Source: a virus
Taxonomy: Duplodnaviria > Heunggongvirae > Uroviricota > Caudoviricetes
Virus record (IMG/VR): IMGVR_UViG_3300035210_000190
Length of the DNA: 64,000 nucleotides
Direction: 5' to 3' (one strand)
A program made the translations under genes and the position numbers. The number at the start of each line of letters is the position of its first letter. Within the stretch, counting starts at the first letter, position 1. Below, piece after piece: positions 30,632 to 33,690 of the stretch. The notes beneath the pieces were generated by a model that saw only the letters and a list, made by a program, of their open reading frames with translations, had not been told where the DNA came from and ran no database searches.

Positions 30632-30716
30632 GCCCATGTGGTGAAATTGGTAGACGCGGCGGATTCAAAATCCGCTTCCGAAAGGAGTGTCGGTTCGAGT
30701 CCGACCTTGGGCACCA
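30632..30716 (+). tRNA. tRNA-Leu (anticodon CAA)
   Basis: Cloverleaf: GCCCATG/CTTGGGC acceptor, GCGGA-TTCAAAA-TCCGC anticodon arm, long variable arm, GGTTCGAGTCC T-arm, encoded CCA. Confidence 0.97.
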
Positions 30717-30730
30717 AATTTAAGATTTCT

Positions 30731-30897
30731 GGCTGTTGCTAAACTGGATCGGTTGGCGGTGTTATACGTGCAAACATCAAAGACCGTGGATGTGGAGGCA
30801 GAGTGAAGATGAAATAGTAAGTCAGACGAGGCCGCACGTACTCTGAGACTTATGAAATAGTCCTAACTTGGTGGTTCGACCCCATCAACAGCTACCA
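30731..30897 (+). ncRNA. 167-nt tRNA-like / mini-tmRNA-like RNA
   Basis: Acceptor GGCTGTT/AACAGCT + A + CCA, T-arm GGTGG-TTCGACC-CCATC, D-loop-like AACTGGAT, no anticodon arm, about 110-nt structured insert. Confidence 0.8.
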
Positions 30898-30904
30898 AAC
30901 ACAA

Positions 30905-30927
30905 GACCACCTTCGGGTGGTTTTTTT
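30905..30927 (+). terminator. intrinsic terminator closing the tRNA / tRNA-like unit
   Basis: GACCACC-TTCG-GGTGGTT plus T-tract. Confidence 0.85.
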
Positions 30928-30993
30928 ATGCTTTTCATTTCCTATTTTACCTTTTTTGTAGTATAATGTGCTTATTCAAAAAGGGGTGCTTTT

Positions 30994-32264: not shown

Positions 32265-32428
32265 GAAAAGGGCCGAATGGCCCTTTTTTGTTTCTTGTTA
32301 AAAATCAATAAGATAAACACAAAAATTTAGGATTTTTTTTAAGAAAAAAACGAAAATAATGCTTTACAGCTACCCACTTTTTCCATATAATGAACCCATC
32401 AAAACGAAACAACACAAGGAAATACAAA

Positions 32429-32560
32429 ATGCAAGGTTCTCACCGCGACATGATGGAAAAGTTTGCAGGCAAGCAGAAAGATAACTCCAAACGTGGCGAT
32501 AACAAAGCCAGCCGTCAAATGCGTGACCAGCGTCGTCAGCGTCATCCAGACGCAGAATAA
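32429..32560 (+). CDS. 43-aa basic peptide, MQGS family copy 3 (divergent)
   Basis: MQGSHRDMMEKFAGKQKDNSKRGDNKASRQMRDQRRQRHPDAE; TTTACA-17-TATAAT promoter; stop lies 6 nt before tRNA-Leu(UAA). Confidence 0.85.
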   Translation: MQGSHRDMMEKFAGKQKDNSKRGDNKASRQMRDQRRQRHPDAE

Positions 32561-32566
32561 AACCAC

Positions 32567-32651
32567 GCCCGGTTGGTGAAATTGGTAGACACGAGGGACT
32601 TAAAATCCCTTTCCGAAAGGAGTGCCGGTTCGAGTCCGGCACCGGGCACCA
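32567..32651 (+). tRNA. tRNA-Leu (anticodon TAA)
   Basis: Cloverleaf: GCCCGGT/ACCGGGC acceptor, AGGGA-CTTAAAA-TCCCT anticodon arm, long variable arm, T-arm, encoded CCA. Confidence 0.97.
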
Positions 32652-32689
32652 GATTAAAAATAACATTAACCACTTTTTACTTAATGAGT

Positions 32690-32721
32690 GTGCCAGAGGT
32701 GAGCCAATAATGCAGCATTAA
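32690..32721 (+). other. minigene unit 1 (SD GAGGTGA, 7 nt, ATG CAG CAT TAA)
   Basis: GTGCCAGAGGTGA-N7-ATGCAG-NNN-TAA; matched copy at 32799-32830. Confidence 0.7.
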
Positions 32722-32798
32722 CACTTAATTTAATCTATAATTGAATCTAGTATAATGATTGTTGAATGCCGACTAACCCTTAGTTCCTATTAAAGTAA

Positions 32799-32830
32799 GT
32801 GCCAGAGGTGAACTACCGATGCAGTTCTAA
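32799..32830 (+). other. minigene unit 2 (SD GAGGTGA, 7 nt, ATG CAG TTC TAA)
   Basis: Same 13-nt upstream block, spacing and stop position as unit 1. Confidence 0.7.
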
Positions 32831-32877
32831 ATTCAAATAAAATTGAGAATTTAAACTTAATATTAGTATAAAGAAAA

Positions 32878-32900
32878 GCCCCGTTAATTCGGGGTTTTTT
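32878..32900 (+). terminator. intrinsic terminator closing the peptide-tRNA-minigene unit
   Basis: GCCCCG-TTAATT-CGGGGT plus T-tract. Confidence 0.8.
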
Positions 32901-32979: not shown

Positions 32980-33690
32980 ATGAAAAACACCACCCCCATG
33001 CAAGTCTTGAAACCTTTGTTGACTCTGTTTAAGAATCTTCAAGGTTTTACGCTTATTGAATTAAATGGCAAAAAAGGTGGCACTACTTTTGTAGGCTCGA
33101 CAATGTATAAATCAAAACCTGTCACGTTTGATTATATTGCTATCTTGGGCACTGGTGGCATCTACCATGACTTGGGAAGCCATAAACGCTTTGTTAACAC
33201 TATCTCACTGGCGTTCAGCTACACTGACCGTAAGACGCCTGTTGTGCGGGCTGGTGTGGGCTTTCAACACAGGGTTGACTACTCAGCCGAGATTGATGTT
33301 TCTACCGCTAAAACACTGCTCACCGAGTTTTTGGAAAACCCAACGATTGATCATTTTGTTAAGACTTTCAATATCCTTCAAAGTTCTAAACTTAACGATT
33401 CTGATATTCTTGAATTTAAGGCACCGTATCTTGAAAAAGTAGATGCCCTGAAGTTGCAACTGGACAAGTTGAATGAATCATTGAGAATTAAACGCAATCA
33501 ATACTATGCGTTGAAAGGTAAAGGCAAGTCAGCCGAAGTTCAAAAAGAAGTCGAACGCCTTCATGACCAAGTGAAAGCACTTCAACAAGCTCTTCGTTCC
33601 ATTTTCAAAGACGACACCAAAAATATGCCCTATGTTGTAAGGCATTCGTTCAACAAAGAGACAGAACAAGTTCAATTTCGTTATACCTAA
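32980..33690 (+). CDS. hypothetical protein with C-terminal coiled coil
   Basis: Long ORF after TGGTATAAT promoter. Confidence 0.8.
   Translation: MKNTTPMQVLKPLLTLFKNLQGFTLIELNGKKGGTTFVGSTMYKSKPVTFDYIAILGTGGIYHDLGSHKRFVNTISLAFSYTDRKTPVVRAGVGFQHRVDYSAEIDVSTAKTLLTEFLENPTIDHFVKTFNILQSSKLNDSDILEFKAPYLEKVDALKLQLDKLNESLRIKRNQYYALKGKGKSAEVQKEVERLHDQVKALQQALRSIFKDDTKNMPYVVRHSFNKETEQVQFRYT

Follow-up and report, generated by a model that had tools for sequence, protein, structure and literature searches.

Tandem start-stop minigenes in tRNA trailers and stand-alone arrays of huge phages form a conserved family that probably acts through ribosome occupancy

The 64,000-nt stretch of IMG/VR record IMGVR_UViG_3300035210_000190 (Caudoviricetes) analyzed here, hereafter called the window, raises the question of why a phage should maintain two strong ribosome-binding sites that lead only to three-codon reading frames. 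The window is phage-like, with dozens of small codirectional ORFs, an IS-type transposase, and an HNH endonuclease, and its G+C content is 38%. The sequence GTGCCAGAGGTGA lies on the plus strand at positions 32690 to 32702 and 32799 to 32811, spaced 109 nt apart, and these are its only exact copies in the window. The first-pass annotation described two matched units 109 nt apart with an identical 13-mer, 7-nt spacing, first two codons, and stop position, and this description agrees with the sequence letter for letter.

The two units belong to one predicted transcription unit, which starts at a sigma-70-type early promoter (TTTACA-17-TATAAT, 32363 to 32391, plus strand) that matches the consensus at 11 of 12 positions. 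The first cistron is an open frame for a 43-aa Arg/Lys-rich peptide (32429 to 32560, plus strand), which had no match in a Pfam search and a homolog of which precedes the tRNA in one of the two modules of contig L049. It is followed by tRNA-Leu(UAA) (32567 to 32651, plus strand), which has an encoded CCA and was detected by ARAGORN and by the Rfam tRNA model (59.4 bits). Minigene unit 1 (32688 to 32721, plus strand) comprises a GTGCC box, the Shine-Dalgarno (SD) sequence GAGGTGA (32696 to 32702), the 7-nt spacer GCCAATA, and ATG CAG CAT TAA (32710 to 32721), encoding MQH. An AT-rich spacer (32722 to 32796, plus strand), with two TATAAT words (32736 to 32741 and 32751 to 32756) and a conserved TGCCGA..TAACC box, separates it from unit 2 (32797 to 32830, plus strand), which has a GTGCC box, the SD GAGGTGA (32805 to 32811), the spacer ACTACCG, and ATG CAG TTC TAA (32819 to 32830), encoding MQF. 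The region had been annotated as closed by a terminator, and an intrinsic terminator is found at positions 32873 to 32900 (plus strand), 47 nt 3' of the unit 2 stop. The neighbors of the units in the window are the peptide gene, the tRNA, and small phage ORFs, and the gap contains just one other listed ORF, which starts at TTG, has 45 aa, and passes through the tRNA. The two units thus make up the 3' trailer of a predicted early transcript that contains the tRNA. The TATAAT reported between the units is present and is conserved in the related tRNA-trailer modules, but it does not score as a sigma-70 promoter, having no −35 box. A promoter belonging to each unit, made of the upstream words TTAGATAA and TTAATGA together with the inter-unit TATAAT, was rejected on the same ground of a missing −35 box. 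Another tRNA gene of the window, Leu(CAA) at 30632 to 30716, is followed by a different, GC-richer noncoding stretch (30717 to 30930) with a terminator at its end. This stretch corresponds to the 167-nt tRNA-like RNA with ATGAAATAG repeats of the first-pass annotation, and it contains neither a unit of the minigene family nor an Rfam match at the gathering threshold.

Pattern scans of viral contigs, of four whole IMG/VR huge-phage records (G001 to G004, including the 290-kb G001 and the 437-kb G004), and of metagenome contigs recovered about 35 nonidentical units from related huge-phage contigs (150 to 440 kb) and from larger metagenome contigs. G001 has 10 units, G002 and G003 have 3 each, and G004 has 2; more are present in contigs L049, L057, L099, L112, L138, and L148. 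Every unit lies on the locally transcribed strand, as do 8 of 8 units in G001 judged by the strand of its tRNAs, and a reversed control pattern gave 1 match. The recurrence of the core exceeds chance, because it is found about 35 times in related contigs and always in the transcribed orientation. The same pattern gave a single chance hit in GTDB genomes, in a Mycobacterium. No cultured relatives were found, and the phage sequence database matched the tRNA only. Close relatives occur in public runs from peat, which probably is where the window comes from, and from freshwater, groundwater, wastewater, and some organism-labeled samples; these matches are contigs of uncertain RNA or DNA origin and inform on presence and variants, not on transcription. 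Family members are also carried by the contigs Ga0308158_10000001 (L049, 1.86 Mb) and Ga0308157_10000028 (L112, 678 kb), which to our knowledge exceed any known phage genome, the 1.86-Mb contig by far, and G001 to G003 bear the IMG/VR label provirus. The elements that carry the family may not all be free phages, or some contigs may be chimeric. Kinship with T4 was considered and set aside, with no gp23 capsid match (in a search run without a positive control) and no Terminase_6N match.

The family core reads AAGTGCC-N-GAGGTGA, followed by a 7-nt spacer, an ATG, and a stop after zero to two further codons (four in one exception). Both window units have every one of the defining features, namely, the core, the 7-nt spacer, the ATG, an in-frame stop within five codons, a position on the transcribed strand, and AT-rich noncoding surroundings. 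The sequence logo of the core consists of aatTAa, three free bases, AAGTGCC, A or C, GAGGTGA, R-C-Y-A, three free bases, and ATG, and conservation is confined to this core, with AT-rich flanks that are poorly conserved. GAGGTGA is the exact complement of the 16S rRNA tail UCACCUC. It is invariant in the family, and variants with a one-base insertion read GGAGGTGA, which extends the pairing with the 16S tail. The C two bases past GTGA could add a pair with G1530 of 16S rRNA (Escherichia coli numbering). The spacer is constant in length and free in sequence (GCCAATA, RCTACCG, ACTAGGA, GCTAAAA, and others), and the ATG is present exactly 7 nt past GAGGTGA in 36 of 36 units. A 7-nt SD is found at only 1 of the 67 window ORFs of at least 120 aa. 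A second, looser box, AACATTAACC (32660 to 32672 in the window), is located about 25 to 30 nt upstream of GTGCC in about half of the units, both behind tRNAs and inside arrays.

Repeated start sites of this kind could be leftover expression cassettes, i.e., duplicated promoter and ribosome-binding modules that once headed genes, or recombination joints, which are now empty and neutral. The units are indeed repeated and mobile within genomes, and the gene downstream of the window module (32980 to 33690) has a 65%-identical ortholog in G001 that stands in another context, without the module; the module itself is found elsewhere in G001 as a tRNA-Leu(UAA) followed by the same two units. However, none of the approximately 36 units heads a long frame, and the core is much better conserved than the flanks, across distant contigs as well as among strains. 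Moreover, the true genes that use GAGGTGA in these phages have different flanks and spacers of 3 to 6 nt. We regard an origin as empty cassettes as scarcely credible.

The reading frames are short throughout the family. An in-frame stop is reached within five codons in 36 of 36 units and within three codons in 35 of them, by TAA, TAG, and TGA alike, at 3, 6, 9, or 15 nt from the ATG. The encoded peptides are M, MQ, MP, ME, MK, MQH, MQF, MQN, MQS, MQI, MQL, MPY, MPH, MKR, and, once, MQHKL. AUG, one codon, and a stop make up 13 of the 36 units listed, and exact start-stops, in which the stop follows the ATG directly, occur in three to four relatives (L002:7055, L013:3821, and L099:3481); the window units have two sense codons each, and an immediate stop after AUG is absent from both. 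Frame 0 reaches its stop after 2.6 codons on average, compared with medians of 7.5 codons in frame +1 and 8 in frame +2. In 29 of 32 units, the first stop triplet met in any of the three frames belongs to frame 0; two of the three exceptions are the trivial TGA within ATGAAG. When the units are grouped by single linkage on their flanks (70% identity), the in-frame first stop is kept in 11 of 12 clusters (binomial P = 4.7e-5 against one third), the counts being not fully independent since the units are related. As a control, the frames opened by 17 unrelated chance matches to the pattern run for 9 to 446 codons. A longer peptide starting at the GTG of GTGCC was rejected, because 1-nt indels ahead of the SD interrupt its frame, which in most units is also short.

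Strain variation is consistent with these patterns. In a strain variant contig, 15 of 127 positions differ from the window, and the unit 1 core changes only from CAG to CCG and from CAT to CAC, while the only variation in the core of unit 2 is A to G at the first spacer base. The flanks change and the SD, spacing, ATG, and stop do not, which fits purifying selection. In two runs, a contig leads from the tRNA trailer straight into unit 2, unit 1 being replaced by 14 other letters (window 32674 to 32798); these joints point to single-unit paralogs or to alleles of the module in related strains. The enrichment of in-frame stops, the invariant ATG, the chance-match control, and the strain variants indicate that selection acts on the start, the frame, and the stop and not on the peptide. 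Judged from these sequence comparisons, selection for predicted ribosome loading and immediate termination is well supported. The first-pass annotation had proposed a selected nonprotein use of translation, and in this general form the proposal is supported by the family, all 36 units of which combine a kept ATG and in-frame stop with differing peptides.

The same frame evidence bears on the possibility that the units are not translated and that the 26-nt core is a binding or processing site for a protein or an RNA, for example, for a nuclease that trims the tRNA trailer, its likeness to a start site being incidental. AAGTGCC and the RCYA past GTGA are conserved beyond what an SD needs, which favors such a site. 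Textbook initiation assigns no role to the AAGTGCC box 5' of the SD, and no model considered here accounts for it. A binding site predicts, however, neither a spacer of fixed length and free sequence, nor an invariant ATG, nor three kinds of stop in frame at 3, 6, and 9 nt. In addition, it would have to operate without a conserved secondary structure and without an Rfam family. Relatives that keep the 13-mer and lose the ATG or the stop, which had been suggested as the mark of a binding or RNA motif, were not seen among the 36 units, all of which retain the ATG and a stop within five codons. A nontranslational motif is quite improbable on account of the frame evidence.

Only tRNA passes the Rfam gathering threshold in the window, and an E-value threshold adds only subthreshold matches driven by the terminator; in seven related loci, Rfam found only tRNAs and one signal recognition particle (SRP) RNA. 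The trailer folds no better than its shuffles (z = −1.06), and no helix conserved across the subtypes was found. The stretch from SD to AUG is slightly more open than with shuffled flanks (0.50 versus 0.46 unpaired; Wilcoxon P = 3e-4). Several candidate structures were rejected. A small hairpin of GGUGARCUACC is lost in units with other spacers, and a closing helix of UUAAUG and CAUUAA is found in only part of the MQH subtype and is too weak, with six A-U or G-U pairs closing a 30-nt loop. A degenerate tRNA was suggested by the likeness of the core to the 5' end of tRNA-Leu (GCCCGG..GGTGAA), but neither a T arm nor any other tRNA part follows. A sponge for CsrA was also discarded, as the units have no GGA-in-loop motifs.

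The second codon is unusually restricted, with CAG in 22 units, CCG in 6, AAG in 2 to 3, GAG in 1, and a stop in 3 to 4. Each sense codon has G as its last base, and the form C(A/C)G accounts for 28 of about 32. In the window genes, these are minor G-ending synonyms (synonym shares of 31% for CAG, 27% for AAG, 18% for GAG, and 14% for CCG), unlike the AAA, AAT, ACC, or AAC that true ORFs here favor as the second codon, and the position is therefore not selected for high expression. It may have been chosen for slow decoding (a wobble-read NAG, proline, or termination) or, more speculatively, may reflect a feature of the A site, such as the G preference of RelE-type nucleases. RelE was first reported to be specific for CAG, UCG, and UAG, and it prefers codons ending in G, cutting after C and before G (PMC5224514). 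Taken further, this would make each unit a decoy or a target for a RelE-type endonuclease, which cleaves mRNA in the A site of the ribosome. After initiation, that site would contain CAG, CCG, another NNG, or a stop, the codons that these enzymes cleave most readily, in line with the G-ending rule and the predominance of C(A/C)G. The agreement is pure correlation, however, and no RelE/ParE-family gene is found in G001 to G004. A decoy would also have to outnumber the enzyme greatly, and ribosomes would be left stalled after cleavage. We consider the bait explanation very improbable.

Known minigenes can trap ribosomes, or can deplete the tRNA of their last codon through drop-off of peptidyl-tRNA. 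The barI and barII sites of phage lambda, attributed to Hernandez-Sanchez et al. (1998; cited in PMC2490762), reportedly consist of an SD, an AUG, one sense codon, and a stop, have no peptide function, and act via the translating ribosome. They are said to be single sites with the rare codon AUA, toxic only when Pth is limiting, and of no known role for lambda. The units described here resemble bar in being phage borne, in combining an SD with a minimal frame, and in having no peptide function; they differ from it in forming a conserved multicopy family, with a considerably stronger SD, a spacer fixed at 7 nt, the AAGTGCC box, and a G-ending second codon, and in being placed in tRNA trailers or dedicated arrays. 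The scarce-tRNA last codon of the bar type (AUA in bar) is not a feature of this family. A second comparison is provided by the CreT RNAs, which are small, combine an SD and a mini-ORF only a few codons long with a stabilizing hairpin, and depend for their activity on efficient translation of the mini-ORF and not on the peptide (PMC8501985; bioRxiv 10.64898/2026.06.02.729485). CreT has two consecutive rare (AGA and AUA) or proline codons, is repressed by the CreA guide, and belongs to the CRISPR-Cas loci of cellular genomes (PMC8501985; bioRxiv 10.64898/2026.06.02.729485). As in CreT, an SD, a mini-ORF, and a downstream hairpin occur on one small RNA here, the terminator following the unit 2 stop at 47 nt. 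Unlike CreT, the phage units have no pair of rare or proline codons and no known CreA partner, stand in tandem, and are cotranscribed with tRNAs.

A strict tRNA-sequestering toxin of the bar or CreT type would starve the host of one tRNA through peptidyl-tRNA drop-off or stalling, and tRNA-Gln(CAG) would be the candidate because it is the second codon that is conserved. The order of SD, mini-ORF, and hairpin, the predominance of CAG at the second position, and the possession by these phages of tRNAs of their own would suit such a toxin. The last sense codon, however, is not conserved, specifying any of 12 amino acids (His, Phe, Asn, Ser, Ile, Leu, Tyr, Arg, Gln, Pro, Lys, and Glu) or none. Consecutive rare codons or proline codons occur in none of the units, and CAG, at 10.6 per 1,000 codons in this phage, is minor but not rare. 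Furthermore, no gene for tRNA-Gln, tRNA-His, or tRNA-Phe was seen across the phage loci scanned, and no gene for Pth or an RF-1-domain protein is present in G001 to G004. With neither a codon pair nor a rare last codon conserved, strict tRNA starvation is decidedly improbable. The specific suggestion that host tRNA-His and tRNA-Phe are depleted finds no support either, because the third codon is variable or absent: when the third codons of the relatives were listed, this proved to be the least conserved position, missing in a third of the units, and CAT/CAC and TTC/TTT are ordinary codons in this phage. The G001 ortholog of unit 2 reads ATG CAG TTT TAA.

The units occur in two main settings. 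In the first, which substantiates the link to a tRNA proposed for the window, a tRNA-Leu(UAA) or tRNA-Met(CAU) is followed 37 to 40 nt past its CCA by unit 1 of the MQH subtype and then by a conserved AT-rich spacer with TATAAT, unit 2, and a terminator. This layout occurs once each in the window, G001, and L138 and twice each in L049 and L112, and near-identical copies of unit 1 stand 37 to 40 nt 3' of the tRNA in G001, L049 (twice), L112, and L138. Other units are located roughly 100 to 150 nt 5' of tRNAs (tRNA-Arg in L005 and tRNA-Met in L057). The second setting is a stand-alone array, which is headed by a −35/−10 promoter with 17-nt spacing, of the same type as that of the window (32363 to 32391), and continues with an A/C-rich leader, three to five units 98 to 113 nt apart, a conserved 3' domain, and a terminator. 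The array transcripts contain no gene. The terminal units of the relatives are followed by a terminator 35 to 49 nt after the stop. In the 3' domain, an SD-like GGTGCGG stands opposite CCTCCACC, before the terminator. Across three arrays (L008:3815-3865, L013 at about 3530 to 3480 on the minus strand, and L014 at about 1180 to 1230), the SD-like part reads GGTG(C/T)GG and the anti-SD-like part CC(T/C)(C/T)CCACC, the two being about 25 nt apart with an intervening sequence that starts with AAGTG(G/A)CA. The 3' domain is partly duplicated in L036.

These settings bring in the main rival explanation, in which the units are ribosome roadblocks in cis. A parked ribosome would shield the untranslated AU-rich RNA of tRNA clusters and arrays from 5'-end-dependent RNase E, RNase J, or Rho, so that the transcript, including downstream tRNAs or the array 3' domain, would be stabilized or completed. 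SD elements that stabilize RNA without making protein (STAB-SD) are known, which favors this explanation. The units do lie inside tRNA clusters, behind the tRNAs in the window, G001, L049, L112, and L138 and before them in L005 and L057. In the arrays, the conserved 3' domain might serve as the cargo, and an early stop would keep ribosomes off a downstream structure. In the window and six other tRNA-trailer modules, however, only a terminator comes after unit 2, so that there is no cargo to protect, and the constraint on the second codon is left unexplained. A roadblock in cis is possible and has a real, though minor, share of the probability.

The neighborhoods of the units are rich in translation functions, with many tRNAs, a tryptophanyl-tRNA synthetase (TrpRS), ribosomal protein S21, and an SRP RNA. 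G001 encodes a small bacterial-type SRP (4.5S) RNA (L005:1923-2018, minus strand, equal to G001:183334-183429; Rfam RF00169, 58.7 bits, above the gathering score), directly after tRNA-Arg(UCU) and two minigene units; no SRP RNA was found in G002 to G004. A phage-borne class I tRNA synthetase gene (L008:2388-3383, plus strand, and L036:10135-11130; Pfam tRNA-synt_1b, E = 1e-51) stops about 30 nt short of the promoter that heads the stand-alone G002 array of three units. An S21 homolog is present in G004 (L162, G004:61515-61673; PF01165, 47.6 bits). The best database match of the synthetase is annotated as trpS (68.6% identity) and lies on a contig labeled Acinetobacter phage MD-2021a. This record (L163, CAKLQH020000002.1:245548-252531) contains sucC, sucD, lpdG, trpS, and a Na+/H+ exchanger; it is probably a piece of bacterial chromosome, with a wrong phage label. 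The match of TrpRS to an Acinetobacter-labeled bacterial contig, together with the G+C content of 38%, gives a weak hint that the host may be a member of the Moraxellaceae.

Selection on the units, their orientation on the RNA strand, and the two layouts are read from the contigs directly, and from them we infer ribosome loading and its effect. The explanation that we prefer, and hold to be probable, is that each unit is a genuine, selected start-and-stop site whose product would be ribosome occupancy and not a peptide, with the RNAs favored as acting in trans. The parts of a unit would be an AU-rich upstream tract, an SD of 7 to 8 nt, the fixed 7-nt spacer, an AUG, a single slow codon that may be missing, no more than two further codons, and a stop. 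Once the tRNA is cut out, a trailer with two start-stop sites, ending in a terminator hairpin, would be left. The sites would capture 30S subunits and initiator tRNA, after which a 70S ribosome would form, dwell, and terminate at once. The trailers and the arrays of three to five units would then be early-made RNAs that act in trans and tie up host ribosomes or initiation or termination factors, much as CreT RNA toxins and bar minigenes exert their effects, and they would belong to the translation-directed gene set of huge phages, alongside tRNAs, TrpRS, S21, and SRP RNA. A role in trans is favored because the arrays have nothing to regulate in cis, because the tRNA trailers have nothing downstream to protect, and because CreT RNAs, likewise made of an SD, a mini-ORF, and a hairpin, act on the cell via their own translation. 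Several points count against this explanation. The AAGTGCC box is not accounted for by it, the statistics come from related sequences, and a sink in trans would tax the phage's own translation too. The pairs of rare or proline codons on which CreT toxicity depends are absent from the units, and minigene toxicity in E. coli requires limiting Pth.

Elements with some of these properties have been described before in cells. The 3' external transcribed spacer of glyW-cysT-leuZ in E. coli is a sponge RNA from the trailer of a tRNA-Leu transcript that base-pairs with small RNAs; the phage modules share the origin in a tRNA-Leu trailer, but that spacer has neither a ribosome-binding site nor a minigene. 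In the E. coli Start-Stop sites, the AUG is directly followed by a stop, an SD-like sequence lies upstream, and ribosome binding was detected by toeprinting (Meydan et al., bioRxiv 10.1101/520783). The three to four exact start-stops of the present family (ATG TAA) are of this kind, the window pair having two sense codons instead. The Start-Stop sites are located inside genes and out of frame, do not form a sequence family, and have weak effects (bioRxiv 10.1101/520783). A natural minigene in the axe-txe toxin-antitoxin operon is regulatory and not coding, and as a single site it affects the translation of a neighboring gene in cis (PMC8708949), unlike the phage units, which have no downstream gene in their own transcript. 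A minigene-type element is known from bar, CreT, and Start-Stop, and what is new is the sequence family and its setting, which is viral, tandem, and linked to tRNAs.

For annotators, the family provides a signature for a noncoding element that gene callers ignore, and for specialists in initiation, it presents two unexplained features, the AAGTGCC box and the rule of a G-ending second codon. Minigenes have until now seemed either accidental, as in lambda bar, or akin to cellular addiction toxins, as in CreT. Here, a minigene family under what appears to be purifying selection is found in several huge-phage lineages, where it is wired into tRNA transcripts and stands beside translation genes. 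The most far-reaching version of our explanation, which we think rather doubtful, is that huge phages, probably of Moraxellaceae, make early RNAs whose sole product is ribosome occupancy and which hold host 70S ribosomes, initiator tRNA, or release factors, so that translation is reallocated at takeover. These RNAs, the tRNA trailers and the arrays of three to five units, would combine exceptionally strong start sites with a second codon that is deliberately slow or is itself a stop. If true, the phages would possess a viral equivalent of the CreT-type RNA toxins that acts in trans, has evolved as a repeat family, and is tied to the phage tRNA supply. The finding thus raises the testable question of whether viruses may use translation without a product as a tool.
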